In this document: piece after piece, positions 26,197 through 56,524 of the stretch | Numbering within the stretch: the stretch's first letter is position 1 | Layout: each line of letters starts with the position of its first letter | Origin: a virus | Taxonomy: Duplodnaviria > Caudoviricetes | DNA: 64,000 nucleotides | Virus record (IMG/VR): IMGVR_UViG_2906626472_000001 | Location: 54,886-118,885 of that record | Reading direction: 5' to 3' (one strand) | Notes under the pieces: generated by a model | Seen by the model: only the letters and a program-made list of their open reading frames with translations | What the model was told of the DNA's origin: nothing | Database searches by the model: none | Position numbers and translations under genes: made by a program

Positions 26197-26223
26197 AAGC
26201 CGCCCCTCACCCGGGCGGCTTTT
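26197..26223 (+). terminator. terminator-like hairpin
   Basis: AAGCCGCCC-CTCACCC-GGGCGGCTT then TT. Confidence 0.7.
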
Positions 26224-26240
26224 GAATTTTGGGAACACCA

Positions 26241-28496
26241 GTGGAAAACAAAATCATCTTCCATGCGAACATCGATGATGATCCGACCGACTTCACGCGG
26301 TTGCAGGATTTCGCCGAAGCTTCGCTCGACCACGTCGTCCTCGACGGCATCAGCAGCCTGACCAAGTACGTCGGCTTCGGCGTCACGAAGTCGGCTGTGA
26401 CGCAGATCTCTGTCGCGACTGGCCGTCTCTATTCGGCCGGCAAGGTCTACTCCTCGGCGGACAACGCCTGGAGCAAGGACTTCATCACGCAGCTGCCGGT
26501 CGCCGGCAAGCGCATCGCTTCGGTCGTGACCTGGGGGCAGGAGTCGGACACCGACATCCGTCCGCGCCAGTTCCTGATCAACGCTGAGACGCGCCAGGCT
26601 GAGCCGCAGGCCGTTCCGCTGGTTCACTCCCGCGTCGCGAGCCTCAACGTCGTGCTCGGTGCCGAGGCTCCGGACCCGACCGCGCCGCTGGTGGACGCCG
26701 GCTACACGGTCATCGCCAACGTCGTCCTGACGCCGACCGGCGTCGACACGATCACGATGGTCACCGACAACCAGCTGCCGAGCGTGCAGGCGCACGAGCA
26801 GCGAATCGACGACCTCGAAGTCTTCGAGGAGACCGCCGGTCTCCAGATCAAGACGCTCGCTTCCGACATCGCGGCCCTCAAGGCTGCCGGCTCGAAAGGC
26901 GACGTCGATCAGGCCACCATGGGCCGCACGCTGGTTCGTCTGGCCGTGCTCGAGTCCAAGAACGGCGTGGTCTACAACGCGATCGACTCGGACGCGAACT
27001 TCTTCCTCGACACCACGAAGTCGCAGCTGGATGACCCGCTATCGCATGTGAAGGTGGAAGAGGGCATCCGTATGCCGCACGCCGCCGAAGGCGCCGCGGC
27101 CCTCCAGATCTTCAACCCGCTTGATCCGAGCGCGACGATCAAGAACGGCATCATGTTCCCCGCCTACACGCGGGAAGCCTGGCTCCAGTCCGGCAACATC
27201 AGCGGTGAGCTGCAAGTCGCGGCTTACTCGGTCCAGTCGTTCGACATGGTCCAGAAGATGATGTCGAAGACCCGCATCCGATACGGCGACGAGTTCTACG
27301 TCTGCACGAACAGCTTGTTCTGGCAGACCGGACAGTACAACGGCGCCGGCCTGTTCTTCCGCGACGGGGCGACCTACGAGGTCGAGAACCCGCAGGACAC
27401 GCCGTACCACGCCTTCATCCGCCTGCGTCAGATCTGGATCGACCGCTGGGATGAGCCGTACTGGGAAAAGGTGACGACCACCACCACGGTGACCGGCACC
27501 CAGATCGCCGAGACCTGGCTCCAGGGCCAGAACATGTGGCTCGATGCCGTTGGCGTCTGGTTCACCCGTCTCGCGGCCTCCGGCTCGGCTCACTTCGCCA
27601 TCGTCGAGGTCTCCGACTACGGTCTGCCGAACCTCAAGGCGTGTATCGCTCAGACCACGGTGCTCCGCGAGAACCTCGTTCTCCAAGGAGAGACCAAGGT
27701 CTCGTTCCAGCCGACCTTCCTCCAGGCCGGTAAGCGCTACGCGGTCGTCGTGACCACGGCAGCCGACCACTGGGTCGCCACGGTCCCGGGTCAGCAGTTC
27801 ACGTCCGGCACGTTCTTCTACGTGCTCGATGGCGCCTACGCCCAGGGCGATGCGTTCAAGGATCTGTGGATGCGGCTCTACCGCTGCAAGTTCAACCAGG
27901 CCCGTGCGGTCATCACGTTGAACCCCCTGCAGCTGGCCGGCGGCATTCTCGCGATCGACCTGCTCACCGGCACGGTCGTCCCGGACGGCACCTCGCTCAC
28001 GTACGAGATCCAGGTCGGTTCGACTTGGTACAACTTCCTCGACGTGGACAAGTACATGCTCGGCCAGGGCGGCACGATCCCGCCGCTGCTCCCGCTGCGA
28101 GCCGTCTTCATGGGCTCCGTCGACTGCATGCCGTGCATCAACCTGGCTGACAGCTCGGTCTACGTGTCCCGCCCGGATGTCTATGCGCAGCACGTCTCCA
28201 AGACGCGCACGCTGCCGGCGGCCTCGACCTCGATCCGAGTCATCGAGCGCTACGAATACTTCGATCCGGCCTACCACACGGCAAGCTGCAAGCTTCTGAC
28301 CGGTGCGGGCTTCACGACGCAAGTATCTCCGTCCTCGGTCTCCACCTGGATCGATCCGGACGATGGCGCTTACGAGAAGACCTACGTCTTCAACCTCGGC
28401 GCAGCGATCACGCAGTTCAGGAAGCTGACCCGTCTCGACACCTCGACCAACCAGCGTGTGTTCCACGTCGGTTGGCAAAAGGACTACGCCGTCTAA
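26241..28496 (+). CDS. large baseplate/tail-fibre attachment protein
   Basis: 751-aa beta-rich ORF between gpI and the tail fibre; GTG start. Confidence 0.7.
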   Translation: MENKIIFHANIDDDPTDFTRLQDFAEASLDHVVLDGISSLTKYVGFGVTKSAVTQISVATGRLYSAGKVYSSADNAWSKDFITQLPVAGKRIASVVTWGQESDTDIRPRQFLINAETRQAEPQAVPLVHSRVASLNVVLGAEAPDPTAPLVDAGYTVIANVVLTPTGVDTITMVTDNQLPSVQAHEQRIDDLEVFEETAGLQIKTLASDIAALKAAGSKGDVDQATMGRTLVRLAVLESKNGVVYNAIDSDANFFLDTTKSQLDDPLSHVKVEEGIRMPHAAEGAAALQIFNPLDPSATIKNGIMFPAYTREAWLQSGNISGELQVAAYSVQSFDMVQKMMSKTRIRYGDEFYVCTNSLFWQTGQYNGAGLFFRDGATYEVENPQDTPYHAFIRLRQIWIDRWDEPYWEKVTTTTTVTGTQIAETWLQGQNMWLDAVGVWFTRLAASGSAHFAIVEVSDYGLPNLKACIAQTTVLRENLVLQGETKVSFQPTFLQAGKRYAVVVTTAADHWVATVPGQQFTSGTFFYVLDGAYAQGDAFKDLWMRLYRCKFNQARAVITLNPLQLAGGILAIDLLTGTVVPDGTSLTYEIQVGSTWYNFLDVDKYMLGQGGTIPPLLPLRAVFMGSVDCMPCINLADSSVYVSRPDVYAQHVSKTRTLPAASTSIRVIERYEYFDPAYHTASCKLLTGAGFTTQVSPSSVSTWIDPDDGAYEKTYVFNLGAAITQFRKLTRLDTSTNQRVFHVGWQKDYAV

Positions 28497-28517: not shown

Positions 28518-28724
28518 ATGACCGACAACACGAACGCGGCCACCCCCGAGGTGGTCGCGAGCGAACCCGCGCCGGCTCCCGTCTACTACGACGTGAAGCT
28601 GAACGCCCGGTTCACGCTGCAAGACTTCAATTACCTGCCGAGGGACCATCACATCGTGGACAAGACGGTCTACGACGCGATGGAAGCCGCGGGGGTGGTT
28701 GCCGATGTCAAGCAACTTTCCTGA
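28518..28724 (+). CDS. small tail-region protein
   Basis: AAAGGA RBS; 68 aa. Confidence 0.65.
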   Translation: MTDNTNAATPEVVASEPAPAPVYYDVKLNARFTLQDFNYLPRDHHIVDKTVYDAMEAAGVVADVKQLS

Positions 28725-30387
28725 GCTTGTATTCAGCGAGGATGAAGACTTCACGGCTGATCGTTTGAACTCGGCGATGGAGGTGCTCGATAAGCGCCTC
28801 CGCGCCCTGGAGCCCTTCACGCCTTCTTGGCAGCAGGCAGTCAACGATCTGCGTGACGTCGGTCTCTCTCGTTTGAACGACGCCATACTGCCGGCGTATC
28901 AGCGCATCCAGCTGCTGTCCACGCTCGGCTTCCTCTTCGCTGGTTCGTCCAGCGAAGTCACTCTCACCAACGACATGACTGCGACGTTCATCATCGACGG
29001 TGAAACGCAGAAGTCTCTATTCACGCCTACGCCATTCCTGGCGCTGACGCGCTCCTCGACGGTCGATGACTGGGCTATCGCCCAGCTGATCTCCTACGAG
29101 GCTGCGACCGGCACCTTGATGGTGAAGGTCAAGGCGATCACCGGCAACGCCGGCCCGCACACTGATTGGCAGATCGGCGCATGCGCGGGTAATACCGCCG
29201 CTGCGATGGCGTATTTCGCCCAGATCGATGCGGCCCGCAACCAGTCGAACGTTGCCAAGGCGGCGACCGCAGCTGATCGCGTGCAGACCGGACTTGACCG
29301 GGTCCAGACTGGGCTCGACGTTACGGCTGCAAACATTGCCAAGGAACAGGCGCAGGCGGCTGCCTCGGGTGCAGGCACCTGGGATCCGACGAACTACGCG
29401 CTGAAGACCTACGTCGACAACGCCATCGCCAACCTGATCGGGGCAGCTCCGTCCACATTGGACACGCTGCAGGAGATTGCGCAGCGGTTCGTCACGGACG
29501 AGAACGCGCTCAACTCTCTGACCACCACGGTTTCTGGAAAGCTCCAGAAGTCGATGAACCTCAGCGACTTGACGGATACGGTTGCTGCAAAGGCAAACCT
29601 TGGCATCTCGTTCGCCAATCCGACATCGAAGTCGGGCCTTGCTGCCGTGGCCGGATCGGCCGTCACCTACATGCGCTCGGATGCTGCTCCGGCAATCGAT
29701 GTCTCGATTTCGCCGACCTGGACGGGAAAGCACATCTACCAGTATTCGTCTGGACTGAGCTACGTCCATCAGACGAGCACCTGGGGTGGGCTCTCGGTCT
29801 ACGCTCCCGACCAAGGAACCGCCTTCATCAGCTATCATCGCGGCGTTTATGCGGTGAACGCTGGTCTCGACGGCGACAACTGGTGGCGCATCGGCGGTTG
29901 GTCTGATGGCGCTGCCTGGCGCTTCGGCGTCAGCCCGGCTGGTCTGATGCAGTCCGCAGGCTACGGCGCAAACACCACGCCAGTGGCAAGCCAGGTTCGA
30001 GCCGCAGGCGACATCATCTACGGCGTCTCCGATGTGCGTCTGAAGAAGGACATCGAGACGATCGAGAACGCTCTGGAGAAGATCCGGCAGCTGCGAGGCG
30101 TCACCTGGGATCAGAGCGATCTGGCCAAGGAGCTGAAGGCGCCTGATCAGCCCCGCCGCAAGGCAGGTCTGCTGGCTCAGGATCTGCAGAAGGTTCTGCC
30201 TGAAGCGGTCGGCCTCGCGCCGTTTGACACCGACAAGTTCGGTAGGAGCAAGTCGGGGCTCGACCTCCTGAACATCTACTACGAGCAGCTCTCCGGCCTC
30301 TTGGTCGAGGCTGTCAAGGAGTTGGCGGACAGGAATGATGCGCTCGAAGCGCGCCTGGCCAAGCTCGAAGCAAAACTGGGGGTCTAA
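28705..30387 (+). CDS. tail fibre with C-terminal peptidase S74 intramolecular chaperone
   Basis: APSTLDTLQEIA, NLSDL, YHRGVYAVNAGLDGDN..RIGGWS tip motif, SDVRLKKDI...GLLAQDLQKVLPEAV...LVEAVKEL. Confidence 0.92.
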   Translation: MSSNFPELVFSEDEDFTADRLNSAMEVLDKRLRALEPFTPSWQQAVNDLRDVGLSRLNDAILPAYQRIQLLSTLGFLFAGSSSEVTLTNDMTATFIIDGETQKSLFTPTPFLALTRSSTVDDWAIAQLISYEAATGTLMVKVKAITGNAGPHTDWQIGACAGNTAAAMAYFAQIDAARNQSNVAKAATAADRVQTGLDRVQTGLDVTAANIAKEQAQAAASGAGTWDPTNYALKTYVDNAIANLIGAAPSTLDTLQEIAQRFVTDENALNSLTTTVSGKLQKSMNLSDLTDTVAAKANLGISFANPTSKSGLAAVAGSAVTYMRSDAAPAIDVSISPTWTGKHIYQYSSGLSYVHQTSTWGGLSVYAPDQGTAFISYHRGVYAVNAGLDGDNWWRIGGWSDGAAWRFGVSPAGLMQSAGYGANTTPVASQVRAAGDIIYGVSDVRLKKDIETIENALEKIRQLRGVTWDQSDLAKELKAPDQPRRKAGLLAQDLQKVLPEAVGLAPFDTDKFGRSKSGLDLLNIYYEQLSGLLVEAVKELADRNDALEARLAKLEAKLGV

Positions 30388-30390
30388 GAA

Positions 30391-30624
30391 ATGGCCGTTC
30401 CATCATCAGGAGCGGTCGCTTTCTCGACCGTCAACTCTGTCTTCGGCTACGGCGGCGCGATGAGCAGCTACGTCGGCAAGTATTACTACTGGTACGATCC
30501 AAACTGGGGTGTGCGCTCCGCCCAATTCCCCGGCTCGAACTTCCCGATGACGATGTTCTACGGCACGTCGGGCCACGACGAATGGAATTGTGCCTGCGAC
30601 TGCAACTGCGCCTGCGGCAAATAA
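30391..30624 (+). CDS. Cys-rich-tailed small protein A (putative fibre-tip protein / RiPP-like precursor)
   Basis: 77 aa, starts 3 nt after the fibre stop; ends FYGTSGHDEWNCACDCNCACGK; paralog adjacent. Confidence 0.85.
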   Translation: MAVPSSGAVAFSTVNSVFGYGGAMSSYVGKYYYWYDPNWGVRSAQFPGSNFPMTMFYGTSGHDEWNCACDCNCACGK

Positions 30625-30636
30625 CGGAGGTCACTG

Positions 30637-30855
30637 ATGGCTATTGCTACCTCAGGCAGCATCGCAATGTCGACGGTCCAATCAGTTTTCGCCCGAGGCT
30701 ACTCCATTAGCGGATATCGCGGGACGCAATACTACACGTCGGCGGGATTGGGAACTTTCCCGACTGGAGGCTTCCCATTCTCGGCGTTCTACGGGACGTC
30801 ACCCAATAATGAGTGGGCTTGCGCCTGCGACTGTAACTGCAACTGCGGCAAATGA
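30637..30855 (+). CDS. Cys-rich-tailed small protein B (paralog of A)
   Basis: 72 aa, GGAGG RBS; ends FYGTSPNNEWACACDCNCNCGK. Confidence 0.85.
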   Translation: MAIATSGSIAMSTVQSVFARGYSISGYRGTQYYTSAGLGTFPTGGFPFSAFYGTSPNNEWACACDCNCNCGK

Positions 30856-30861
30856 GGACAC

Positions 30862-31173
30862 ATGGAAAAGAAATTCAGCTTCAAAGTGAAGGACTGGAGC
30901 GCTGACGGCTCAGCGCGAGTGGAATACATCCACGGCACGCTCGGCACCATCACCAAGTCCGTCTTCATTCCGCTGAACTTCTCCGAGGAGGAGCAGCGCA
31001 GCGCGATCGCGATGCAGTTCCCGTCGACCATGTTCCACTCACGGTGGCTTGGTTATCTGCAACGCGAGGCACCTCTTCCGGCACCCGCCGCCATGGAAGG
31101 GGAGTTCACGTTCAGCCTCGATCGGCCGGATGACAATCTGGTCGAGCAGGCGCACGAGATCGAAAAGGTCTGA
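30862..31173 (+). CDS. hypothetical protein in the modification cluster
   Basis: GAGGA RBS, 103 aa, coupled to the next gene. Confidence 0.7.
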   Translation: MEKKFSFKVKDWSADGSARVEYIHGTLGTITKSVFIPLNFSEEEQRSAIAMQFPSTMFHSRWLGYLQREAPLPAPAAMEGEFTFSLDRPDDNLVEQAHEIEKV

Positions 31174-31715
31174 TGCGCCGCAAGCGTATGCGGTTCGGAA
31201 GTTTTATGGTCACGCTCTTCACCTGCTACGCGGGTGAGGAGCGGATCATTCCTCCTGGCGAACTGAACCGGGGCATCACTGAAGCCCCGATCGATGATCT
31301 CATCGAGATCAACAAGAATGCCAAGCCGCTAAACCCCATCACGGTCTTCACCAAGGGATCGTTCGAGATGGATCTCGGCTGGGACAAACCATTCCCTATC
31401 AAGGCGGGTGAGGGTGGATACAGAGGCGCTTTTGCGGAGCGTCTGGACAACATTCGGCTACGTGCAGTCGAAGACGGCAGCGAATATCACTGCATTCTTC
31501 CGCTCGATCGAACGGCTCGATACTGGGACAGGCGCCCAGTGAGCTGTGACGAGGGTCAAGCGATCGAGCTTTCCGCCGGCCAGTTTCTATACATCGCGAC
31601 GGGCGCGATCGAGATTGGCGGCAAGACCTTCACCGGTCCTGCCATGGTGGAGTCATCCAAGGACCAGACTGCAATGGCCACAGAGCGTGTGATCGGTGCA
31701 AAGATATGGATCTGA
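31173..31715 (+). CDS. hypothetical beta-rich (cupin-like) protein
   Basis: TGATG coupling; FLYIATGAIEIGGKTF and VFTKGSFEM strands suggest a double-stranded beta-helix. Confidence 0.6.
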   Translation: MRRKRMRFGSFMVTLFTCYAGEERIIPPGELNRGITEAPIDDLIEINKNAKPLNPITVFTKGSFEMDLGWDKPFPIKAGEGGYRGAFAERLDNIRLRAVEDGSEYHCILPLDRTARYWDRRPVSCDEGQAIELSAGQFLYIATGAIEIGGKTFTGPAMVESSKDQTAMATERVIGAKIWI

Positions 31716-32437
31716 GTTTCAAACCCAAACACTACCTCCCGGTCCTGTACACGGGATTGGCCGCCGTTGTGCTCGGCGCAATTCTCGTGCTGATCGGCGT
31801 GGTTTGGTGGCCGTGGCTGCTCCTGACCTGGAGCGTCTACTGCTTCCTGGCTATCACCAATTCGGCCGGTCACCACCGGCTATTCTGTCATGGCTCATAC
31901 GAGACATCGACATTCTGGGAAGTGTTCCTGATCCTGACGGGGACGCTGTCCTGCTATAGCTCGTCGCTGCAATACTGCGTGACCCACAGCTGGCACCACA
32001 AATACGCGGACACCGATGGTGATCCCCATCACTTCGAGTCGTTCTGGGACGTTTTCCGTGAGAGCTATCGCATGGAGAACGCCCCGCTCAGCAGCCGGAA
32101 GGCAATGGCCAGACTCCTGAAGCGTCCGGGCCATGCCTTCTTCCATCGCTACTTCTGGGCTTTCCCGGCCCTGATGGTGGTGATCCTGGCCCTCATCGGC
32201 TGGAAGGTGCTCCTGTTTGGATATGTGGCTCCGGTGGGCATCATCCTGTTCTCGGCAGCGATGTTCAACTTCCTGTCCCACGACGACGACGGTCCGAACA
32301 ACAAAACAATCGCGCTGTTCGTCTCTGGCGAGGGTAGGCACAAGCTCCATCACGAGAACCCGCACCTTTGGGATTTGCGGCAGAGGTGGTGGCACATCGA
32401 TCCGAGCGCCTGGCTCATCTCGCTCATCAAGAGGTAA
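31706..32437 (+). CDS. membrane fatty-acid desaturase family protein
   Basis: Three His boxes GHHRLFCH, HSWHH..D...DPH, GEGRHKLHH, plus TM helices and a C-terminal IDP motif. Confidence 0.9.
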   Translation: MDLSFKPKHYLPVLYTGLAAVVLGAILVLIGVVWWPWLLLTWSVYCFLAITNSAGHHRLFCHGSYETSTFWEVFLILTGTLSCYSSSLQYCVTHSWHHKYADTDGDPHHFESFWDVFRESYRMENAPLSSRKAMARLLKRPGHAFFHRYFWAFPALMVVILALIGWKVLLFGYVAPVGIILFSAAMFNFLSHDDDGPNNKTIALFVSGEGRHKLHHENPHLWDLRQRWWHIDPSAWLISLIKR

Positions 32438-32439
32438 CA

Positions 32440-33069
32440 ATGCCGACGATCCGCTTTCTGACGCCTGCGGACTATCCAGACATGTGCGATATCCTGGACA
32501 AGCACACCAGCGGTCCAGGCGCCTATGCCAATGACCGCACCGCCGCTCCGTCAGCGGATTTTAACTGGCATGCGAAGTGGTACATCGACACGCTCTTCGA
32601 GGCGGCGATGACCAACTTCTTCGGCTACTTCGATGACGAGGGGCGACTCGCGGCGTTCGTTTGCTTCATCCGGTGGGTTAACGACACCGATATCTCCATC
32701 AACATCAAGGTGGAAGACCCGACCATCGATCTCCCTCGTGCGGAGGGGGCTCGCTGGTCGGATGTCACCATCGACCTGATCAACTGGGGTGTCGGCTACT
32801 TCTACTCAGAAGGCGTGACGACGTTCTGGACGCTGATGATGAGTGGGCAAGAGGCCGCAAGCTTCGCCGCCCATGAGAACTGCATCCTCAACCAGTACGG
32901 CAAGGAAAAAGTCCTGTCGCTTCCGGCCGGCGAGTTGCCGCCGGAGCAATATCGGCGTGTGCAGTGGATGCCGATTTTTCAGGACTCGGAGATCTACAAA
33001 TACACCGATCCGCTGCCGCTGTCTGAATACCTGAAAGTAGAGAATGATCCGACTGGACTTGCTGGATAG
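32440..33069 (+). CDS. putative GNAT-fold acyltransferase
   Basis: IRFLTPADY..., FGYFDDEGRLAAFV, LINWGVGYFYSEGVTTFW resemble GNAT topology; GAGG RBS. Confidence 0.5.
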   Translation: MPTIRFLTPADYPDMCDILDKHTSGPGAYANDRTAAPSADFNWHAKWYIDTLFEAAMTNFFGYFDDEGRLAAFVCFIRWVNDTDISINIKVEDPTIDLPRAEGARWSDVTIDLINWGVGYFYSEGVTTFWTLMMSGQEAASFAAHENCILNQYGKEKVLSLPAGELPPEQYRRVQWMPIFQDSEIYKYTDPLPLSEYLKVENDPTGLAG

Positions 33070-34342
33070 GGACGGGGAGGTCGTGCCCCTGTTCTATGAT
33101 CAGCACACGTCACGACTGATGGACCAAAACGGCTGGCGAGCCATCGACTTCACGGGGCACCAGCTACTCGAGTCCGCGCCGACAGAGCGCCGCAAGTTCA
33201 TTGCGGTCGACTACGACCAGCCGGGCAAGAAGGTCCGCGAGGTCACCAAGCTGAAGATCCAGCTCGGCCTCGGCTGCAACTATTCCTGCGCCTACTGCCT
33301 TCAGGCGGCGCAGATCCACAAGGCCGCAGCGTCATCGACGCGCGATGCCAGCGAGTTCCTCTCGAACATCGACAACTGGATCGGCGCTCCCGAGGGCATG
33401 GAGAAGGTCGAGCTGTGGGGCGGCGAGCCGCTGCTCTACTGGAAGAAGATCGAGGTTCTCGCGCCCGCGCTGAAGGAGAAGTTCCCGAACGCCCGCTTCT
33501 CGATCATCACCAACGGATCGCTCCTGACCCGTGAGATCGTCGATCAGCTGAAGGCGTGGGACTTCTCGGTCTCGATCAGCCACGACGGTCCGGGCCAGCA
33601 CATCCGCGGCGATGACCCGTTCGAGGATCCACACAAGTTCGCCTTCATCCAGTATGCATTCAAGCAGCTGCATCCACGCTTCTCGTTCAACTCGGTCCTG
33701 ACGCCGGCAAGCCACGACGTCAGCGCCATCATCGACTGGTTCCAGGACTACTTCCCGGGATGCAATGTCGCGTTCGAGGGCGTGGTTCACAGTTACGCCG
33801 CGGACGCTTCGTCGATCTTCACGATCGAGCAGCTGGAGCAGTTCAGCGACATGCTGTCGCGCCAGCTCGTCGACGGAAGCGCGTTGCGTTCGCCGGCAAT
33901 GGCAGACAAGCTCCGCAGGGCGATGACCTCGCTCGTGAACGAGCGCTCGTCTGATACCTTGTTCCAGAAGTGCGGGATGGACACGCCGGAATACCTGGCC
34001 GTCGATCTCAAGGGCAACGTCATGACCTGCCAGAACGTGGGTGCCAACGGCAACCACAAGATCGGGCATGTGGACGACTTCGAGAGCATCGCGCTCAACA
34101 CCTCGCGCCACTGGAGCAAACGCGCCGAATGTCAGAGCTGCCCCGTGCTGCAGCTTTGCCAGGGTGCCTGCATGTACCAGGGCGGTGACAACTGGACGCA
34201 CAGCTGCAACGCCGAGTTCTATTACAACCTAGCCTTTCTCCGCGTGGCCCTCTACGGGCTGACCGGTCGATGGCTGACTGGGTTCTCTGGCGACATCGTC
34301 AGGCCGACCCTGAAAAAGGATCGACATGTCCAAGTTCGTTAA
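33044..34342 (+). CDS. radical SAM enzyme with SPASM domain (putative peptide maturase)
   Basis: CNYSCAYC, WGGEPLL, ITNG, SISHDG; SPASM C..G...C...CQSCPVLQLCQGAC...C. Confidence 0.95.
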   Translation: MIRLDLLDRDGEVVPLFYDQHTSRLMDQNGWRAIDFTGHQLLESAPTERRKFIAVDYDQPGKKVREVTKLKIQLGLGCNYSCAYCLQAAQIHKAAASSTRDASEFLSNIDNWIGAPEGMEKVELWGGEPLLYWKKIEVLAPALKEKFPNARFSIITNGSLLTREIVDQLKAWDFSVSISHDGPGQHIRGDDPFEDPHKFAFIQYAFKQLHPRFSFNSVLTPASHDVSAIIDWFQDYFPGCNVAFEGVVHSYAADASSIFTIEQLEQFSDMLSRQLVDGSALRSPAMADKLRRAMTSLVNERSSDTLFQKCGMDTPEYLAVDLKGNVMTCQNVGANGNHKIGHVDDFESIALNTSRHWSKRAECQSCPVLQLCQGACMYQGGDNWTHSCNAEFYYNLAFLRVALYGLTGRWLTGFSGDIVRPTLKKDRHVQVR

Positions 34343-35063
34343 GCTGGCAGCCCAGCTGGACAAGATCCCGCACCTGAAGCTGGGGCCAGAGTTCTTCGTG
34401 CCCCTGCTCCAGGCCGAGCTGGCTGCGATCGACGCGGCGCTCTTCGTGCCGTATCGATCCAAGAGTCACAACACGGCGCACATCGCCAAGTCCTGGCACG
34501 GCCTGTCCCTAATCTCTCCGGGCGGAACGGTTCACGGCGACCTCACCGAGGAGCCTTATGCCGGCCGCACGGACTGCGCATGGACGCCGATCGCAGAGGC
34601 CAGCCCCTACATCAAGCACGTCATCAGTGAGCTTGGCGGCGAGGGCCAGCGGGCTCGGTTCATGTGCATGCGGGCAGGCGGGAGCCTCACCTGGCACCGG
34701 CACGGCACCGAGATTTCGATCGAGCAGGGCAACATCATGGGCCAGCTCAGGCCCAACTGGTACGAGGTCATCGTCCACGTCCCGGTGCGATCGAACCCGG
34801 AATACAGCTACGAGGTCATCGCCGCTCACGAGTACGAGCTGGGCGACTTCTTCGCTGCCGGCATGAAGATCCACTCGCAGAACTATCCGGAGGGAGAGGC
34901 GTGGGCCTTCAACGGCACCCACTACCACAACGTCTTCAACCGCTCGGCCACACAGGATCGCTACTCGATCATGCTGACAGCGGACATCCGGATGAAGAAG
35001 ACCTTCGACATCGTGTCGAAAGCCATTGAGGCCTATGACGGGCCGCTGATCGAGAGGTCCTGA
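34326..35063 (+). CDS. AspH-like Fe(II) oxygenase, copy 1
   Basis: W.GLSL, WT.IAE..PYI, RARFM.M.AG..L.WHRH, HVPV.SNP, GEAWAFN..HYHNVFN....RY. Confidence 0.8.
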   Translation: MSKFVKLAAQLDKIPHLKLGPEFFVPLLQAELAAIDAALFVPYRSKSHNTAHIAKSWHGLSLISPGGTVHGDLTEEPYAGRTDCAWTPIAEASPYIKHVISELGGEGQRARFMCMRAGGSLTWHRHGTEISIEQGNIMGQLRPNWYEVIVHVPVRSNPEYSYEVIAAHEYELGDFFAAGMKIHSQNYPEGEAWAFNGTHYHNVFNRSATQDRYSIMLTADIRMKKTFDIVSKAIEAYDGPLIERS

Positions 35064-35812
35064 TGTCAAAGTTCGTAGAGCTGGCCAGGAAACTGGACAG
35101 CATCCCGCATCTCGACCTCGGCCGAAGCTTTGAGGTGGAGAGGCTTCAAGCGGAGCTGGACTCAATCGACTCAGCATTGTTCGTGCCGTACCGCACGGTG
35201 AGCAGATACAAGCAGCTCATCGCGAACAACTGGCAAGGCCTGTCGATGGTGGCGCCACACGGCTCCATCCATGACGATCTGACGGAGGAGTTCAACGGGC
35301 CTCCGCTCGACGCTACCTGGACGTCGGTTGCCGAGCAGTGCCCTTACATGAAGCAGGTGATCACCGAGCTTGGCGGCGAGGGCCAGCGCGTGCGCTTGAT
35401 GCGAGTGATGCCCGAAGGTCGCCTGACATGGCACCGTCACGGCAACGAGACTTCGGTCGAGAACGGCAAGATCCTCGGCGGCCTTCGTCCCAACTGGCAC
35501 GAGCTGATCGTCCACGTCCCTGTCAGGACGAACCCGGAGTTCAGTTACGAAGTCATCGAAGTTCCTTCATATCAATTGATCGACTTCATGACCGAGCCGC
35601 TGGCGATCCACCGCAAGAACTACCCGGCCGGCGAGGCCTGGGGTTTCAACTCGGTCCACGTCCACAACGTGTTCAACCGCTCCAAGACCGAACCGCGATA
35701 CGCTCTGATGCTGAGCCTCGACATCAGGATGAAGAAGACCTTCGACATCGTCTCCAAGGCGGTCGAGCGCTACATCGCGAACGGCGAGGGGCCTTTAATG
35801 CCAGGGCTCTGA
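35063..35812 (+). CDS. AspH-like Fe(II) oxygenase, copy 2 (tandem paralog)
   Basis: Colinear with copy 1 over the full length (MSKFV.LA..LD.IPHL, WHRHG.E, LRPNW.E.IVHVPVR.NPE, DIRMKKTFDIVSKA). Confidence 0.8.
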   Translation: MSKFVELARKLDSIPHLDLGRSFEVERLQAELDSIDSALFVPYRTVSRYKQLIANNWQGLSMVAPHGSIHDDLTEEFNGPPLDATWTSVAEQCPYMKQVITELGGEGQRVRLMRVMPEGRLTWHRHGNETSVENGKILGGLRPNWHELIVHVPVRTNPEFSYEVIEVPSYQLIDFMTEPLAIHRKNYPAGEAWGFNSVHVHNVFNRSKTEPRYALMLSLDIRMKKTFDIVSKAVERYIANGEGPLMPGL

Positions 35813-35813: not shown

Positions 35814-36236
35814 ATGCAAACCATTCTGTCTTCGAAGCCCCCTGTCGTTCTCGAAGACGACTTCAATGTTGCCACCAACGAAGACTGGGTTCGTGAGTGG
35901 CAGCTCAAGAATGATGACGAAATCGTCCCGCTCGACACGTCCTGGAAACTGTACTCGCAGCTCCAGAGACAGAACACGGGCGACATCGCCGTCATGCTCT
36001 CAACCGACAACGGTCGACTCGTCGTCACCGATCGGCAAGCCGGCAAATTCGGCCTCAGGCTGAAGCAGGCTGACGCCAATCAGTGTCCGCCCGGGACGTA
36101 CCTGTATGACATCGTCCTCGTTGCTGGCGATGGCATCTACCGCTTGGTCACAGGGACGATCATCGTCCAGCAGGGGATCACCAACGTCCCCGGCCAGGAG
36201 ACGTGGAAGCATGTTCCGCTGATCCTCAGACCATAA
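35814..36236 (+). CDS. BppU-N-like tail/baseplate protein
   Basis: GTYLYDIVL....RLVTGTIIV..GIT motif. Confidence 0.65.
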   Translation: MQTILSSKPPVVLEDDFNVATNEDWVREWQLKNDDEIVPLDTSWKLYSQLQRQNTGDIAVMLSTDNGRLVVTDRQAGKFGLRLKQADANQCPPGTYLYDIVLVAGDGIYRLVTGTIIVQQGITNVPGQETWKHVPLILRP

Positions 36237-36262: not shown

Positions 36263-36291
36263 GCCGCCCCTCCCGGGCGGCGTTTTTGTTT
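36263..36291 (+). terminator. terminator-like hairpin
   Basis: GCCGCCC-CTCCC-GGGCGGC then GTTTTTGTTT. Confidence 0.7.
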
Positions 36292-38918: not shown

Positions 38919-41900
38919 ATGTCCAACAACAATCTCGACATCAGGGCAAGGCTTACCGCCGAGGACCACGCGTCCGCGACGGTCGTCAAGCTCCTGGCGA
39001 AGATCAAGAGCCTCGAAGCTCAGATGGCGAAGCTCGGCAAGGCCGGCAACGCCATCACCGACATCCCTATGGAGGGCTACGTCAAGAAGATCAACGCCGC
39101 GGGCAAGGCGCTGAACGGACTGACGCAGAAGCACCTCAACTGGGCAAAGGCAAACGGTGCATCGGGCGACAAGGCCCAGTGGCACTGGACCAAGCTCACC
39201 AACGATATTCAGAAGGCGAAGGACGACCACGAGAAGTACGTCAACTCGCGCGTCCGCGGCCACAAGAAGCTCGCGAAGGCGGCTCAGGAGGAGCTGTACC
39301 AGCACTACAAGAACGCCCAGGCGTTCAAGTACATCTACAACAAGACCAACGATGAGCGCCTCGACCTTCAGCGCCGGTTCCACAAGGAGCTTGGCGAGCT
39401 TGAAGGATCCCATCTGCGGAACATCGAAAACTCCCACCGCGCTCACTTCCGCAACCTCGCTGCGATGCGACGGAGCGCGATGAACAGCATGCGGTCGATG
39501 TCCAACATCGGCAGCAGAGCGATCCCATACGCTGCGGCAGGCGCTGCGGCTTCCGGCTATGCCGGCGTGTCGGCTCTCCGCACCCGCATGCGGATCAACG
39601 ACGCCGAAACCAACATGCAGATCTTCGGTGGCCTCGACCCTGAGGCCGTCAAGAAGATGCGCAAGGAATGGGGCAACGCGGACGCCATCAAGTTCGGCCT
39701 GTCGCCGGACGCGATGATGAACTCGTACACCGAGGTCATCAAGGCCGGTATTCCTGAGGCAATCGCGAAGGCGGTCACCGAGTCGATCGTCAAGTCGTCG
39801 ATCGGCCTGGAAATGGACTCGCTCCAGACGACCAAGCTGGCCGGTTCGGCCGCGACGCTGCTCGGCGACATGAAGAACCTCGATCCGAAGAAGATCGACT
39901 CGATCATGGGCGCCATCGCAATCGCAGCCCGCGACTCGAGGGCTGACGCCAACGAAATCGTCGCCGCCAACAAGCGCGGCAGCTCGGTTATGGCCATGGG
40001 CATGTCCATGGAAGATCTGTCGGCGTTCACGGCCGGCGGCATCTCCGCTGGTATCCAGCAGGGCAAGGCCGGTACCATGATGGACCACATCGTGTCCGAG
40101 TTGCTCGGCGCCAGGTTCAAGAATGGGAAGCGCGGCCAGGATCTCGGCAAGGCCGCGAACCTGTTGGGCATGGGTGGAAAGCAGGGCTTCTCTGCCCGTA
40201 TGGCTTCAAACCCGACCGAAACCTTGATGAAAATCTTGGATAAGGTCGGCACCATGAAGCCGATGCAGCAGGAGCAGATTGCTCAGCTGATCGGCCAGGA
40301 CCAGTGGAGCGGCGAGTTCCTGCAGATGGTGCAGGCTCGCGAGAAGATCCGCGAGATCCTCGACAACATCAAGAACCCGAAGAACGCAAACTTCAACGAC
40401 GATGCTGCCGCGAAGAAGATCAACAGTCTGACCGGGCGCTGGAAGTCGATGGTGACCGCTTTCACCCTGCTGTGGGAAGCGGTTGGCGCCGGTTTGGAGA
40501 AGATGTTCGGCCAGTTCGCCAGCTTCTTCATCGACTACGCCGGCAAGGCCGACACCTCGAAGATCACAGAGACGGTCGAAGCGTTCACTGACGGTATCAT
40601 CCAGGGGCTCGGATACGAGAGCTGGACGGCAATGCTCAGGGACGTCTTCGGCGATCCGGCCAATATCCGCAGCTACGGCAAGGAGTTCGGCGGATTCGCC
40701 AAGGGCTTCATGGCCGGCATGAAGGAGATCTACGACGGCGTCAAGTTCGTCATCACCGGTCTGATCAATGCCTTCGGGCTTGACTCGAAGGACCCGGAAG
40801 CGATGGGCAAGTTCACCGCTCGCATCATCGAGTTCGCGGCTGCCATCAAGACGATCGGCTCGGTCGCTGATGTCCTCGCCAGCATCGTGACTTTCCTGGA
40901 AGGGCTCGCTGCGGTCGTCGCATTGATTGTCGCGCCCGAGGTTGCCGTGCCCATCCTGGGCGTGGGTATCGGCGCGTATCTGGGCAAGAAGCTGCACGAC
41001 TATTGGTACGGACCAGACAGCAAGGCTCCGCCGCCTGTGGGAGAGCCGAAGCGCAAGCCGGGAACGAGCCAGCAGGAGTGGCAAAAGCAGATCGACGACT
41101 ACACGCGCGATCGGCTGAAGCACAACAGCAGCTACACCGGGCCGACCGACTTCTCGAGTCGCGGTCGCAATCGTGACCTCGCGCAGAGCCTCGACAAGTT
41201 CACCGGAAGGGTTGAGCTTGCGGCGTTTCGCGGTGGAACGGGCGGCATCCAGAACGCCTTCTACGGCGGCAGCAGCGGCGGCGGCGGCCTGTCAAGGGCA
41301 TCGGCCGGTGGCGGCCTCGGCGGTGGCGGCATTGGTGGCGTTCCGGCCTTGCTCAAGAGCACGCCTGGCGGCGCTCTGCCGAGCATGGGTGGCGGCATTA
41401 TCCGGCGAGACAACATCCCGAACTTCAGTGGATCGGGTGGCAGTGTCGCATCGGCTGGAGAGCTGAACCGCTCTGGCTTCGACCGGGTGTTCGGCGGCAC
41501 GCCGCTTGCCGGCAAGTACGACCAGATCGTTGCCGCGGCGAAGGCCAACGGCATCTCTCCGGCGCTGCTTGCAGGCGTGATGGCGCAGGAATCCGGCAGG
41601 GGCAAGTTCCTGTCCGGCAATAACCCTGGCGGCGTCATGGATCCGGCTACCGGCTGGTCCAGGAAGATGCAGTTCGCCGATCTGGATGCTGGCATCAGCA
41701 AGACCGCTCAGACGGTCGCCAAGAACTACGCCCGCGCAGGCGGGGACATGAGCAAGCTCGCGGGCATCTACGCACCGCTGGGCGCGGCAAATGACCCCAA
41801 TGGCCTGAACAAGAACTGGCTCCCAGGGGTGAATAGCTTCATGGGCCAGATGGGCGGTGGAAATGGTGCGGCAGCCGCGGCCGGTGTAACGCCCGGCCTG

Positions 41901-42551
41901 GCCGAGCAGCTTGGTCTGAAGGGTAAGGCCAACTTCATGCATGGCCAGTACGGCGGAGTTGGTCAGAACCTACAGACCATCACGCTGGCTTCGGGCAAGA
42001 AGCTGACGGTCAACGCAGCGGCGGCAGAGTCCTTCAAGGGCTTCGTCGATGAGCTTGAGGCTTCTGGCTACAAGATCGGTGACATCGGCGGCTTCTCCAT
42101 GCGTGGCAAGAGGAAGGGCGGAGGCTGGTCGCAGCATGCCTACGGCAATGCGATCGACATCAACCCCGGCAAGAACGCGCAGGACGGAACTGGCCGAACT
42201 GACATGCCGTCTAACGTCCGCGACATGGCGGCGAAGTACGGCCTGTCGTGGGGCGGTGACTGGTCGAGGGCCTACAACGACCCGATGCACTTCGAATGGA
42301 ACGGCTCGCAACCTTGGAAGCAGAAGGGCATCACCGATCAGGTGCCGTCCAGCCTGATCCAGAACGTTCCGACGCCTCCGCCCCAGAATGCGCCTGGCCA
42401 AGGAGCATCTGGTTACGGTGGTGGTGGTCCGGTCCAGATCCACATCAACGGCAACAGCCACGATCCGGAAGCTCTGGCAACGTTGGTGCAGCGTCGCGTC
42501 GACGAGTCGATGAACTGGCGCACGCACGATACCGCGTCCGAGTACACCTAA
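38919..42551 (+). CDS. tape measure protein with C-terminal lysozyme-like and M15 peptidase domains
   Basis: 1210 aa helical Ala/Gly-rich body; ISPALLAGVMAQESG...NNPGG; SQHAYGNAIDIN...WGGDW...DPMHFE. Confidence 0.9.
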   Translation: MSNNNLDIRARLTAEDHASATVVKLLAKIKSLEAQMAKLGKAGNAITDIPMEGYVKKINAAGKALNGLTQKHLNWAKANGASGDKAQWHWTKLTNDIQKAKDDHEKYVNSRVRGHKKLAKAAQEELYQHYKNAQAFKYIYNKTNDERLDLQRRFHKELGELEGSHLRNIENSHRAHFRNLAAMRRSAMNSMRSMSNIGSRAIPYAAAGAAASGYAGVSALRTRMRINDAETNMQIFGGLDPEAVKKMRKEWGNADAIKFGLSPDAMMNSYTEVIKAGIPEAIAKAVTESIVKSSIGLEMDSLQTTKLAGSAATLLGDMKNLDPKKIDSIMGAIAIAARDSRADANEIVAANKRGSSVMAMGMSMEDLSAFTAGGISAGIQQGKAGTMMDHIVSELLGARFKNGKRGQDLGKAANLLGMGGKQGFSARMASNPTETLMKILDKVGTMKPMQQEQIAQLIGQDQWSGEFLQMVQAREKIREILDNIKNPKNANFNDDAAAKKINSLTGRWKSMVTAFTLLWEAVGAGLEKMFGQFASFFIDYAGKADTSKITETVEAFTDGIIQGLGYESWTAMLRDVFGDPANIRSYGKEFGGFAKGFMAGMKEIYDGVKFVITGLINAFGLDSKDPEAMGKFTARIIEFAAAIKTIGSVADVLASIVTFLEGLAAVVALIVAPEVAVPILGVGIGAYLGKKLHDYWYGPDSKAPPPVGEPKRKPGTSQQEWQKQIDDYTRDRLKHNSSYTGPTDFSSRGRNRDLAQSLDKFTGRVELAAFRGGTGGIQNAFYGGSSGGGGLSRASAGGGLGGGGIGGVPALLKSTPGGALPSMGGGIIRRDNIPNFSGSGGSVASAGELNRSGFDRVFGGTPLAGKYDQIVAAAKANGISPALLAGVMAQESGRGKFLSGNNPGGVMDPATGWSRKMQFADLDAGISKTAQTVAKNYARAGGDMSKLAGIYAPLGAANDPNGLNKNWLPGVNSFMGQMGGGNGAAAAAGVTPGLAEQLGLKGKANFMHGQYGGVGQNLQTITLASGKKLTVNAAAAESFKGFVDELEASGYKIGDIGGFSMRGKRKGGGWSQHAYGNAIDINPGKNAQDGTGRTDMPSNVRDMAAKYGLSWGGDWSRAYNDPMHFEWNGSQPWKQKGITDQVPSSLIQNVPTPPPQNAPGQGASGYGGGGPVQIHINGNSHDPEALATLVQRRVDESMNWRTHDTASEYT

Positions 42552-51451: not shown

Positions 51452-51991
51452 GGACTGCCCCGTCGGGAATGACAGCGATAATTTTCAAGTTTAGCAGAAT
51501 TGCGCGGCTATAGGTTACTCCGAAGCGATCTTGCTAACATCCACTCTGCAGCTTCTGGCTCCACGGCTGCTCACCTGAGGCCGCATCCGCAACTTCATTG
51601 GAATCGATCGGAGGTCGTGGAAAGATGCGGCCAAGAAGAGGCAGGGGCTTTTGATGAGTGGCTTCAGTCGGCCGGGTACGAAATCCCATCCATTTCTGGA
51701 TTTCCGTCCTGGTTTCGATCGGCCCGTAAGGCATCAATGTTAGATTGTGCAGCGCACCATGGGGGCAGCCCTGTGCTCCGCAGGACCATCTGAAGTGACA
51801 AGCTTGACGAACAACCGGCGCTTGTGCATGTTGATGACGCTTCTGGATGGAAGCTGAAACAAGAACCCGAGACGGTTCTGGTAGTGGTGTCGCTGGATAG
51901 CGATGGTTTGGTGGGACATTTTGCGTCCCGATCGAACCGTCATACGCGGAAACCGCATCTAGAATCGGTCTCTCCTTTTGGAGAACCGAAA

Positions 51992-53377
51992 ATGAATCCC
52001 GATAAAGTTGTTATTCGCTTTGAGCAGGTTTCCGAGCAAACCGAAGGCCCGGTCCGTCGAATTGTGGGCTTCGTCAGGGCCAAAAATATGCTGCAACTGT
52101 TTGATGCGGCGGATCTAGAAGCCAACCCTCGCGAAGCCAAAGCGGGCGCCGTCACAGCGGACATCATCGATAGTATCTGCGATACACCCGAGACTTTCCC
52201 TTTCAAGACCAAGGGGGTTCTTGTCGGCGCCTCAAACTATGTGGCGCTTGAGCGCAAACGCTACGAGATCCGCTTCGAGAATACCAAAATCGAAGGAATT
52301 TTGGACGGTGGGCACAATATGCTGGCTATCGGGACTTACGTTTTGGCTCGAGCGCTCGGCGATGATCGAATCTTCAAGAAGATCAAACGTTGGACGGAGC
52401 TCAAGGACGCTTGGGAAGCTAATCGTAAGGAAATTACAGAGCTAAAACGAGTCGCAGGCGAAGAGTCAGGAAGCGGGCCTCTCGATTTTCTTGTGCCGGT
52501 TGAGGTACTCGTTCCCGCTGACATCGAAAATGACGAGATCGTTGGCGAATTCAACAGCTCCCTTCTCGATATTTGCGCGGCGCGCAACAATAACGTCGAG
52601 CTTACCTTAGAAACCAAAGCAAATAAAAAGGGGTTCTACGAGTATCTGCGGAAATCCTTGCAGCCATTAATAGCGAACCGCGTTGAGTGGAAATCAAACG
52701 ACGGCGGAGAAATCAAGGTGCGGGACCTGATTGCGCTCGCCTGGATCCCACTCTCTATTATCGACCTACCGGTCGATATCAAAATACCTCCCCAGAATCT
52801 CTATCGAAACAAGGGTGACCTTGCGAAGCACTTCGACACGCTGATGAGCGATGAAAAGGTCTCCAGCGTTTCGGATGGCGACTACACCCATGAGCTTCAC
52901 AATACAGCCGTGCACAGCGCACTTGTCATTGCCGGCCAATTGCCCGAGCTCTACGACAAAATCTATCGGGATTTCCCGGCAGCCTATAACGGGGAGCGCG
53001 AGGGGCGATTTGGCGGGCTTGCTGTCGTCAAGATGGCCGACAGAATGCGCTCAAAGCCGCGAACGCACTTTACCGACGCGGAAGTGGATTACGCCTATCC
53101 AGATGGGCTCATTATGCCTTTGGTCTATGGCTTAAAGGCACTGATGGCAAAAGACGAAAACGGCCACGTTCGTTGGAAAGAGGATCCGTTTCGGTTCCTT
53201 GACGAGCATCTAGAATCTATTGTGAAGAAATATCGTGTCATTCTCGACGCCTTCCGCGCAGATCCGCAGAAGGTTGGCAAGAACGAGGGATCGTATGATC
53301 TCGTCCTCGACGCCTTCGAGACCGAGGTTTTGAAGCGTCAGGCCGTTGCTGCCTCTTCTCGGGGAGTGCGGTCATGA
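51992..53377 (+). CDS. AIPR-like protein
   Basis: ANPR, F..K.KG, GILDGGHN, ARNNN motifs; GGAG RBS; first gene of an RM-like operon. Confidence 0.7.
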   Translation: MNPDKVVIRFEQVSEQTEGPVRRIVGFVRAKNMLQLFDAADLEANPREAKAGAVTADIIDSICDTPETFPFKTKGVLVGASNYVALERKRYEIRFENTKIEGILDGGHNMLAIGTYVLARALGDDRIFKKIKRWTELKDAWEANRKEITELKRVAGEESGSGPLDFLVPVEVLVPADIENDEIVGEFNSSLLDICAARNNNVELTLETKANKKGFYEYLRKSLQPLIANRVEWKSNDGGEIKVRDLIALAWIPLSIIDLPVDIKIPPQNLYRNKGDLAKHFDTLMSDEKVSSVSDGDYTHELHNTAVHSALVIAGQLPELYDKIYRDFPAAYNGEREGRFGGLAVVKMADRMRSKPRTHFTDAEVDYAYPDGLIMPLVYGLKALMAKDENGHVRWKEDPFRFLDEHLESIVKKYRVILDAFRADPQKVGKNEGSYDLVLDAFETEVLKRQAVAASSRGVRS

Positions 53378-56300: not shown

Positions 56301-56520
56301 CCTCGGCCGCAACGCAATCTTGGAAGAGCCTGGCGATATCGTCGCCAGTATTCGCTCCAGTGTGGAAATGCCGCGACGGTGCACCTTCGACGAAAAGACT
56401 CTGTTGGATCTCCGTGGCAGGATCGAGAAGCACATCAAAAACACGTATCTTAAGCGCGTGGACGCGCCCGTCGGGGTCAAGCCTTCGCTCAAGTGCTGGA
56501 TGGAACTTAACGAGGGTTGA
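53374..56520 (+). CDS. PLD-nuclease plus SNF2-type SF2 helicase
   Basis: IATGYF, FHAKTYI...IGSSNFT..GL..NIELN, DGVGLGKT, DEAH, TATP, SEGLNLQ, QRIGRVDR. Confidence 0.93.
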   Translation: MNEERKGRDLFIVDNSVSGWTALRYLEEWTEIAKGFDIATGYFDIGTILALDGKWQSLSKIRILMGADSTHRTRKAFLDAVVKKAVDELDKSLEATKDPNPFLRGVPAIIAALQSRQIECRVYDREKFHAKTYITHAKLDVVGSQALIGSSNFTMPGLTKNIELNVQIQSAREVTQLQEWFDAHWNEAADVTDLIFEAISRHVRLYSPFDVYTKALQEFFRGHELTATEWDETRSKMFPKIDRYQKEAYWALMKIARQHSGAFLCDGVGLGKTFVGLMLIERLVLHEGKRVVLFAPKAAKDGVWEPHLREYLPHIGGVGGNADFSNLAVFSHTDLGRKGEFPERFRRIAELADVVIIDEAHHFRNPGSRAGVDGEGVPSRYYQLYDLLDSSVRSKSLFMLTATPINNRISDFRHMSELFTRRDEAYFARTLGVNNLRSHFNNIEKQLRKTVGPEVADVSGHLAEVQDFLAADEIFKNLVVQRSRAYARESQMRESGNAAVFPDRKAPQVAEYSIRKTYGHLLEMFEKAFTRTKPLFTLPMYYPLAWYKGADKSIDPLEEGRQEQVVGLIRTNFLKRFESSVAAFELSCDRLLRKLLAFLEVHSETDAEKKRLERWKSQHAEILGYAATRQLEFWEDDDNDPDDDIVPQEMLDAVERLDRKDYDVAEMINETVLDLDQIVQFIEEARKFETKHDDKLQKLIRLLKSKELAGQKVLIFTEFADTARYLKRQLDKAGVEGVAQVDSATKANRADVIQRFSPYYNAHSTKRLAENGREEIRVLISTDVLSEGLNLQDASRMINYDIHWNPVRLMQRIGRVDRRMNPEIEKRLINDHPEVASSRGKVSFWNFLPPAELNAILTLYTKVTQKTLLISKTFGIEGKKLLTPEDDYDALKEFNHEYEGTKTAIEDMHLEYQALLLADPALQDRLRALPGGMFSGRQRPSKGTTGVFFCYGLPALDKETGEFTPEAGTTRWYLYDLGRNAILEEPGDIVASIRSSVEMPRRCTFDEKTLLDLRGRIEKHIKNTYLKRVDAPVGVKPSLKCWMELNEG

Positions 56521-56524
56521 GCCG

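Follow-up and report, generated by a model that had tools for sequence, protein, structure and literature searches.

What would a radical S-adenosylmethionine (rSAM) enzyme do inside the tail-fibre transcription unit of a phage? The question is raised by a window of 64,000 nucleotides (positions 54,886 to 118,885 of the IMG/VR record IMGVR_UViG_2906626472_000001), which matches at 100% a prophage region of Bradyrhizobium hipponense strain aSej3 (locus L012). At 30391-35812, between an S74 tail fibre and the tail-sheath gene, a cassette of nine + strand open reading frames (ORFs, lettered A to I) encodes two small proteins with Cys-rich tails (A and B), a rSAM/SPASM enzyme (G) and the accessory proteins C to F, H and I. 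With a probability of roughly 0.6, G is considered to be a protein-modifying maturase, probably thioether-forming, that serves a portable (Asn-Cys)n module at the tip of fibre proteins and not a secreted ribosomally synthesised and post-translationally modified peptide (RiPP).

Window ORFs were annotated by comparison with Pfam, NCBIfam and PHROG, in none of which A or B has a match. Protein A (77 amino acids, aa; 30391..30624, +), predicted to be a substrate of the rSAM enzyme, is composed of a 56-aa fibre-accessory N-domain and a DEWNCACDCNCACGK tail, and ends in WNCACDCNCACGK. Its paralog B (72 aa; 30637..30855, +; 51% identical to A), preceded by a GGAGG ribosome-binding site, carries the tail NEWACACDCNCNCGK and ends in WACACDCNCNCGK. 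An initial annotation, made from the window alone, had described two paralogs of 72-77 aa ending in W-x-CACDCNC-x-CGK together with a radical SAM/SPASM enzyme, and these are found as described. In G (33044..34342, +), the conserved core enzyme, both domains are above their cut-offs (PF04055, 49.4 bits against a gathering cut-off of 29.5; SPASM TIGR04085, 39.9 bits against 27). Its Cys motifs are complete and invariant in 26 diverse homologs: CX3CX2C at residues 78-85 (C78, C82 and C85, in CNYSCAYC), and the seven SPASM cysteines C310, C329, C363, C366, C372, C376 and C388, plus G324, which follow the pattern CX9-15GX4C...CX2CX5CX3C...C of two auxiliary 4Fe-4S clusters. About 60 residues precede the rSAM core, and 2786 homologs of G are found at E<=1e-20.

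The relation between enzyme and tail was examined in both directions. For the forward direction, a profile of 26 G homologs yielded 80 viral loci (35-52% identity, plus one close relative), in which an ORF was taken as a carrier when it was encoded on the same strand as the rSAM gene and within 5 kb of it, with a length of at least 60 aa and at least three alternating Cys. A carrier is present in 62 of the 80 rSAM loci, and 48 of the 80 have at least four alternating Cys. The enzyme-tail association is more than chance: the 612 kb around rSAM homologs contain 73 alternating-Cys ORFs, the more distant 274 kb contain 1, and 897 kb of control phage loci contain none. Among the 18 misses, the rSAM gene lies less than 3.2 kb from a contig end in 11, and four others have a carrier that escaped the filter (L026, with its carrier at 6.8 kb; L076, L080 and L084, with a degenerate NCNC only).

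For the reverse direction, DNA was scanned for stretches encoding (Asn-Cys)4; 117 new loci were obtained, and in 89 of them the repeat is in frame. The set retained for the test consisted of 34 ORFs of at least 80 aa, ending no more than 12 aa after an (NC)n run with n of at least 4 and followed by at least 4 kb of downstream sequence; a same-strand rSAM homolog is found near 33 of these 34. A natural control was provided by 80 viral loci (897 kb) that encode the A-type N-domain with other C-termini: a rSAM homolog was found in 0 of the 80 loci, and CxCxC in 0 of their 82 N-domain ORFs, as compared with 16 of 16 N-domain ORFs inside rSAM loci. The synteny of rSAM gene and Cys-tailed ORF suggested for the window is thus a feature of other phages as well (62/80 forward, 33/34 reverse, 0/80 control), and this rSAM clade is tied genetically, in a near-obligate and specific way, to fibre proteins that carry an (Asn-Cys)n tail at their C-terminus. 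The substrate relation, the location in the virion and the chemistry are inferred.

Across 79 distinct contexts the runs mostly have 4-6 Cys, and the residues between them are N (173), A (49), D (35), K (19) and Q (10). The first Cys is preceded by Asn in 69 of 83 contexts, and position -2 is aromatic in 35 of 83. In 51 of 83 distinct contexts no more than 3 aa separate the end of the run from the stop codon; otherwise the run precedes the start of an S74 domain (L026, L095), a Hint domain (L023, L042, Achromobacter phage JWF) or a domain of about 170 aa marked by SKIIC (8 contexts). In many cases the tail would therefore be the mature C-terminus, either directly or after self-cleavage, which is predicted to lie at the distal end of the fibre. 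Matches of 38 carriers to tail-fibre PHROGs were phrog_7389 (8), phrog_8443 (8), phrog_19602 (6), phrog_32829 (6) and phrog_5073 (5), among others, with further matches to Collagen (4), S74 (3) and Hint (2-3), and the Cys tail with its rSAM enzyme also occurs on fibres of 300-690 aa.

Three cultured phages carry the pair of rSAM enzyme and tail, namely Ralstonia phage RSP15 and Achromobacter phages JWF and 2-1 (G homologs at 37-41% identity). In the isolated phages RSP15 and JWF the rSAM gene stands directly behind motif-bearing tail-fibre genes. RSP15 ORF048, annotated as a side tail fiber, ends in NTNCQCGN; JWF gp028 holds NCNCDCNCNCSC, the last Cys of which (residue 308) is residue 1 of a match to the Hint self-splicing domain.

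Some features of individual carriers and their neighbours were also recorded. In 37 viral loci, a protein of about 300 aa ending in ALGLxPGDxxKVKxGF...V, with a weak PT-TG match only, is encoded directly after the Cys-tailed fibre (for example L018:6475-7278 and L001:7281-8096, the latter being RSP15 ORF047). The fibre-type protein at L026:490-1227 has 25 alternating Cys, mostly in Cys-Lys, directly before its S74 start (WSDEKLKTDIEG). Carriers of about 300 aa with an A-type N-terminal motif are found in L027, L030-L032, L055, L068, L077 and L079 (for example L030:9380-10258); in these the Asn/Cys-rich middle ends in NCNCACNC and is followed by the domain of about 170 aa (SKIICxKL) and a hydrophobic C-terminal end. 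They have no Pfam match, and they are encoded downstream of the rSAM gene, not upstream.

The family to which A and B belong was defined with an A-family HMMER profile, searched against 1.84 billion representatives. At E<=1e-3 it matches 162 proteins, nearly all of which align their residues 1-56 to profile positions 1-60 only. These N-domain proteins have lengths of 67-467 aa and unrelated C-termini, many of them glycine-rich; the C-terminus ...EWNCxCxCxC is found in only 16 of the best 150, mostly proteins of 75-111 aa (one of 237 aa). Among ten family members compared with PHROG, three, all long ones, match phrog_2056 (tail fiber protein; host specificity). Immediate upstream neighbours were passed to Pfam for 45 of 76 A-type proteins, contig-edge fragments, apparent duplicates and short ORFs being excluded, and were Peptidase_S74 in 24, Collagen in 7 and Phage-tail_3 in 4 of the 45. 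A and B are accordingly minimal members of an S74-fibre companion family, with a constant N-terminal domain of putative docking type and an exchangeable C-terminal part; in A and B the 13-residue Cys tail takes the place of the variable C-terminal domain. Other searches were narrower in reach: A alone gave unnamed viral clusters only in the ESM Atlas, the A+B profile used for locus finding recovered close relatives only, a jackhmmer search begun with the L030 N-terminus failed to retrieve A or B, and hhalign links that N-terminus to A/B over 22 residues only (96.6%). The kinship of the A/B N-domain is settled by the later HMMER profile search, which succeeded.

These data bear on the most familiar explanation of such a cluster, a classical RiPP system in which A and B would be precursor peptides with their N-terminal 60 residues as leader, their Cys core being modified by G, H and I and the product set free by lysis to act as bacteriocin, signal or metallophore. 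In favour of this, A and B are small proteins whose N-terminal part is conserved and whose C-terminal core is rich in Cys; genes for tailoring enzymes lie in one cluster with theirs, and the best hidden Markov model (HMM) matches of G are RiPP maturases. However, genes for a protease, an exporter or immunity are absent from the cluster (in Pfam, NCBIfam and PHROG, no ORF of the nine gave a protease or transporter match), and the cluster sits inside the fibre transcription unit. The supposed leader is a widespread N-domain of proteins of up to 467 aa encoded behind S74 fibres, with a rSAM gene in 0 of 80 such loci, and tail and enzyme are also found together where the carrier is a fibre of 300-690 aa, or where an S74 or Hint domain comes immediately after the tail. 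A secreted RiPP is accordingly regarded as very unlikely. The claim that the Cys-tailed ORFs are rSAM substrates and structural fibre-tip proteins, and not free peptides, is better supported by the comparative evidence, since the co-occurrence runs in both directions, the enzyme is absent where the tail is absent, the tail is fused to fibres, and A/B-type proteins follow S74 fibres.

The fibre-tip reading can be put as follows. The substrate of G would be a short alternating-Cys run at the C-terminus of tail-fibre proteins of the virion, with the consensus (Asn-Cys)n and with Ala, Asp or Gln allowed in place of Asn; A and B would be the carriers in this prophage. During late expression, G would most likely install thioether crosslinks (Cys-S to carbon, of the ranthionine or sactionine type) in the tail, a thioether being favoured because no substrate residue other than Cys is invariant, because thioether synthases come nearest among the curated models, and because precedents exist at the protein level. 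H and I would hydroxylate Asn or Asp of the tail, as PF13759 enzymes probably do elsewhere, and a fibre component would thereby gain a rigid distal tip, stapled by covalent bonds. A broader form of the proposal is offered only tentatively. It holds that the system is a portable two-part device, consisting of a short (Asn-Cys)n tag for any fibre C-terminus and a dedicated rSAM/SPASM enzyme, often with 2-oxoglutarate (2OG)/AspH-type hydroxylases, that the tag may become a polycyclic, thioether-stapled needle forming the receptor-contacting tip of the virion, and that in A and B the receptor-binding domain may have shrunk to the 13-residue tag.

Several points weigh against the proposed role of G and have to be set beside the counts given above. 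Three loci with full flanks (L050, L054 and L094) are true misses, without any carrier. With a stricter motif, a carrier is present in 93 of 139 loci, or in 21 of 31 rSAM clusters at 60% identity, and with a slightly looser definition in 118 of 139; since this pool of 139 loci with full-length rSAMs was partly pre-selected for NC repeats, the forward 62/80 is the unbiased figure. The co-occurrence counts include near-identical contigs. Modification of A and B, and their presence in virions, are themselves predictions. HMMs built from the Bradyrhizobium relatives detect no counterpart of C, D, F or H in distant cassettes. As to chemistry, relatives with a CACACACAC tail (L004, L005) offer one Asn only as side-chain acceptor, and for this reason an obligatory Cys-to-Asn/Asp link is unlikely. 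The best curated NCBIfam models for G are PapB (4e-23), a nif11-type model, QhpD (4e-20), CcpM (1e-17) and the SCIFF maturase (5e-12), and G is far below the curated cut-offs (PapB, 82.1 against 340 bits; QhpD, 71.9 against 453; TIGR04463, 47.2 against 525). Its closest solved relative by sequence is the cyclopropyl synthase 8vpo (E 3e-13), followed by CteB 5wgg. Homology therefore does not settle which type of reaction G carries out.

The low scores of G, and a nearest solved relative that is no thioether synthase, also favour a second explanation, in which the alternating cysteines are a metal- or Fe-S-binding motif, or a disulfide motif for trimerisation, similar to the iron-binding HxH sites in the tip of T4 gp37, and the rSAM enzyme carries out some other chemistry (for example formylglycine formation, epimerisation of every second residue or C-C bond formation). 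The CxCxC spacing would set all thiols on one face of a beta-strand, and the variable x residue leaves Cys as the sole constant; CrpA, the substrate of an archaeal rSAM enzyme discussed below, is likewise suspected of binding metal (PMC13692751). Against this, metal binding alone would not need a dedicated rSAM enzyme in near-obligate association (33/34), and the top-ranked HMMs are thioether synthases. Anaerobic sulfatase-maturating enzymes (anSME), which convert Cys to formylglycine, recognise the motif C/S-x-P/A-x-R, and this motif is absent from the tails. This explanation is judged unlikely, and thioether formation by G is retained as the preferred chemistry.

Known systems share separate elements with the one proposed. 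PapB, the maturase of the freyrasin ranthipeptide PapA, is the best curated HMM match of G (NF047865, E 4.3e-23), and in PapA repeated short motifs of Cys and acidic residues are crosslinked; PapA-type substrates, however, are short exported peptides of leader plus core, whereas the carriers here are fibre proteins, without protease or exporter. The streptococcal enzyme NxxcB forms a Cys-to-Asn beta-thioether in NxxcA at NxxC spacing, a spacing that is contained in N-C-N-C. In the tip of T4 gp37, HxH repeats bind iron, and S74 chaperone domains of phage fibres are self-cleaving. What the Cys run shares with the former is a repeat on every second residue, predicted to lie where a trimeric fibre has its distal C-terminal end, and an S74 domain is present here on the neighbouring fibre and, in L026 and L095, directly after the Cys run. 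The difference from gp37 is that the residues are cysteines, not histidines, with a dedicated rSAM enzyme.

Two precedents at the level of proteins were found in one paper (PMC13692751). QhpD, an RS-SPASM enzyme, forms Cys-to-Asp/Glu thioethers in QhpC, the small Cys-rich subunit of a functional protein complex. The likeness lies in a protein, not a secreted peptide, as substrate, and QhpD (TIGR03906) is the third-best NCBIfam match of G; the difference lies in the tail motif of the G system, alternating (N/D/A)-C at the extreme C-terminus, and in its phage tail-fibre setting, and the window region has no dehydrogenase genes, as opposed to the context of the qhp operon. CrpC of Methanococcus voltae, also an RS-SPASM enzyme, installs ranthionine crosslinks on the large Cys-rich protein CrpA encoded next to it (Dieter et al. 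2026, PMC13692751), and the cysteines of CrpA are C-terminal, behind a conserved N-terminal part. CrpA is archaeal, however, with a Cys motif of the CPLVL type, and G reaches 47.2 of the 525 bits of TIGR04463. The words "phage" and "viral" have 0 occurrences in that paper.

On the phage side, an association of beta-hydroxylases with proteins of the tail-collar and collagen-like types has been described (Iyer et al. 2010, PMC2938197), and rSAM cassettes have been placed inside the host-recognition cluster of pelagimyophages (PMC7029224); a cyanophage rSAM gene was interpreted by its authors as an antibiotic gene (PMC12801897), an antiSMASH "ranthipeptide" call (PMC12226641) is uninformative, and PMC7159879 proved to be unrelated. 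Our literature searches, which covered papers but not supplementary files, found no description of this system, and no paper on radical-SAM crosslinking of a phage tail fibre. The initial annotation had stated that no characterised system with this layout was known; the literature agrees as regards the layout, and the statement has to be qualified by the thioether precedents in proteins, QhpD/QhpC and CrpC/CrpA (PMC13692751).

If the fibre-tip reading is true, RiPP-type thioether chemistry would extend from peptides to structural virus proteins, and would build the receptor-contacting tip of the virion itself. There would then be a post-translational layer on host recognition and virion stability, which sequence-based host-range prediction and fibre engineering ignore. 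It may also help to explain the rSAM, 2OG-oxygenase and AspH genes in the "host recognition clusters" of environmental phages.

The closest relatives of the cassette are found in 11 other loci, which are Bradyrhizobium prophages or contigs with a G 78-87% identical. Where the contig reaches, the order is kept as fibre, one A-type gene, C, D, F, G, one AspH-like gene and J, the ORF that follows the cassette. The A/B duplication is specific to this prophage, as compared with the single A-type gene of the close relatives. The AspH-like gene is single in 9 of the 10 relatives that cover the position; a second copy is otherwise found only in L003, a locus that does not reach the position of A. Tails in these relatives have 4-6 Cys and include CACACACACGK, CACACDCACACSK, CATVCDCVCGK and CACDCNCVCTK. 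The Cys tails are encoded by imperfect 6-nucleotide tandem repeats (3.7-3.8 copies; 30594-30616 and 30825-30846 in the window), and in view of these repeats and of the differences in tail length, repeat slippage may vary the tail.

In the window, the + strand order around the cassette is baseplate/tail genes (phrog_6, phrog_34934), a terminator-like hairpin 5' of the fibre transcription unit (26197..26221, +; 9-bp stem with 7 GC pairs and a T-rich tail), a 755-aa protein of the tail/fibre region, a 68-aa ORF, the 562-aa tail fibre and the cassette. The 755-aa protein, the first gene of the unit (26229..28496, +), matches phrog_17470, of unknown function (E 7.5e-172), and is kept 5' of the fibre in relatives. 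The fibre (28699..30387, +), which matches many tail-fibre PHROGs, has a C-terminal S74 intramolecular chaperone domain (PF13884, E 1.7e-16, 60.7 bits against a cut-off of 22, residues 444-504), with SDVRLK at residue 444. Behind the cassette come ORF J, a second terminator-like hairpin ahead of the sheath gene (36263..36281, +; 7 GC pairs and a T tract), the sheath (phrog_23, E 9.5e-99), a tube-like protein and the tape measure. J (35814..36236, +), the last gene of the unit, had been called BppU-like; this was not reproduced, and J matches PHROGs of fibre assembly instead (phrog_1084, E 1.3e-11; phrog_3304, E 2e-7).

All nine same-strand ORFs of the cassette are tightly spaced or overlapping, as had been reported, with gaps of 2-12 nucleotides or overlaps of up to 26 nucleotides. 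The observation that no internal terminator is evident also holds: on the + strand of 30391-35812 there are weak 5-bp stems only, with no strong terminator and no promoter-like site. Because the genes overlap or abut without such internal signals, the cassette reads as part of the fibre transcription unit, and it appears to be co-transcribed with the fibre.

For the accessory proteins the results are as follows. C (103 aa; 30862..31173, +; ribosome-binding site GAGGA) has no family match and no assigned function, and is kept in 9 relatives with the Bradyrhizobium cassette. D (180 aa; 31173..31715, +), also kept in relatives, is predicted to be all-beta and possibly cupin-like from a low-confidence model (predicted local distance difference test, pLDDT, 57), with weak bicupin matches only (HutD, template modelling (TM) score 0.54); a cyclic-nucleotide-binding domain gave the top Foldseek matches and was rejected as meaningless at a TM score of about 0.28. 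E (31706..32437, +) is a membrane protein like the His-box desaturases/hydroxylases, and its three His boxes (HRLFCH at 57, HSWHH at 94, HKLHH at 212) fit HX4H, HX2HH and HX2HH; the DesA equivalog is not reached (16.7 bits against a cut-off of 400, E 3e-3).

F (32440..33069, + strand, ATG at 32440) has no Pfam match and is GNAT-like at the level of the fold: its AlphaFold2 model (pLDDT 88) matches GNAT acetyltransferases in Foldseek, among them RimI 5isv/2cnm and 9mto (E about 2e-8). The acyl-CoA-binding loop of GNAT enzymes has the motif R/Q-x-x-G-x-G/A, of which the conserved LPRAEGARW of F fits only R-x-x-G-x. F has 15 homologs, and all the named ones are from Bradyrhizobium. That F acetylates the N-terminal Ala of A and B is speculation, based on RimI-like enzymes. 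The proposal that an unsaturated acyl group might be added to the fibre tip found no evidence, E being limited among close relatives to the window and L003, and F to Bradyrhizobium.

H (34326..35063, +) and its paralog I (35063..35812, +; 60% identical) are AspH-like oxygenases of the Asp/Asn beta-hydroxylase family, with 21.3 and 21.9 bits for PF05118, just below the 22.6 cut-off; 29 of 30 ESM Atlas matches of H are PF05118 clusters, mostly viral, and the analysis of H/I gave HRH at 124-126 and HxH at 199-201. In 48 of 82 rSAM loci, contigs without sign of lysogeny included, a 2OG-Fe(II) oxygenase of the PF13759 type is encoded, which may be regarded as a parallel to H and I in analogous function only. 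Since HMM and profile-profile comparisons were null, no orthology is claimed for H and I with distant oxygenases. Profile-profile comparison of C, D, F and H with the PF13759-like oxygenase, the "ALGLxPGD...KVKxGF" protein of about 300 aa and the RSP15 ORF046 group gave a probability of at most 1.3%. Homologs of E are encoded directly beside the rSAM gene or the carrier in the distant phage loci L031, L048, L055 and L079, so that an E-type membrane enzyme is a recurrent accessory. C, D, E and F are probably lineage-specific accessories.

A third explanation concerns these enzymes and not the peptides: E, F and H/I (as LpxO-like proteins) would form a lysogenic-conversion "moron" set, which alters envelope lipids or lipopolysaccharide of the host against superinfection. 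Moron genes are often neighbours of tail-fibre genes, and PF05118 includes LpxO, which hydroxylates lipid A. E is a membrane protein of the lipid-desaturase type, and E and F vary between lineages. The cassette genes, however, overlap as if translationally coupled and lack internal signals of their own, an oxygenase gene accompanies rSAM and carrier in the 48 of 82 loci mentioned above, among them contigs without sign of lysogeny, and E-like genes adjoin rSAM or carrier in the four distant loci. A moron set is thus given a low probability, and modification of the fibre tip is preferred as the role of H and I.

Elsewhere in the window, a lower G+C content (0.52-0.56, against about 0.62 in the rest) was observed at 51800-60001, with three large + strand ORFs of 517, 1048 and 1258 aa. 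The tape-measure-sized ORF (1210 aa; 38919-42551) has a long Gly-rich region.

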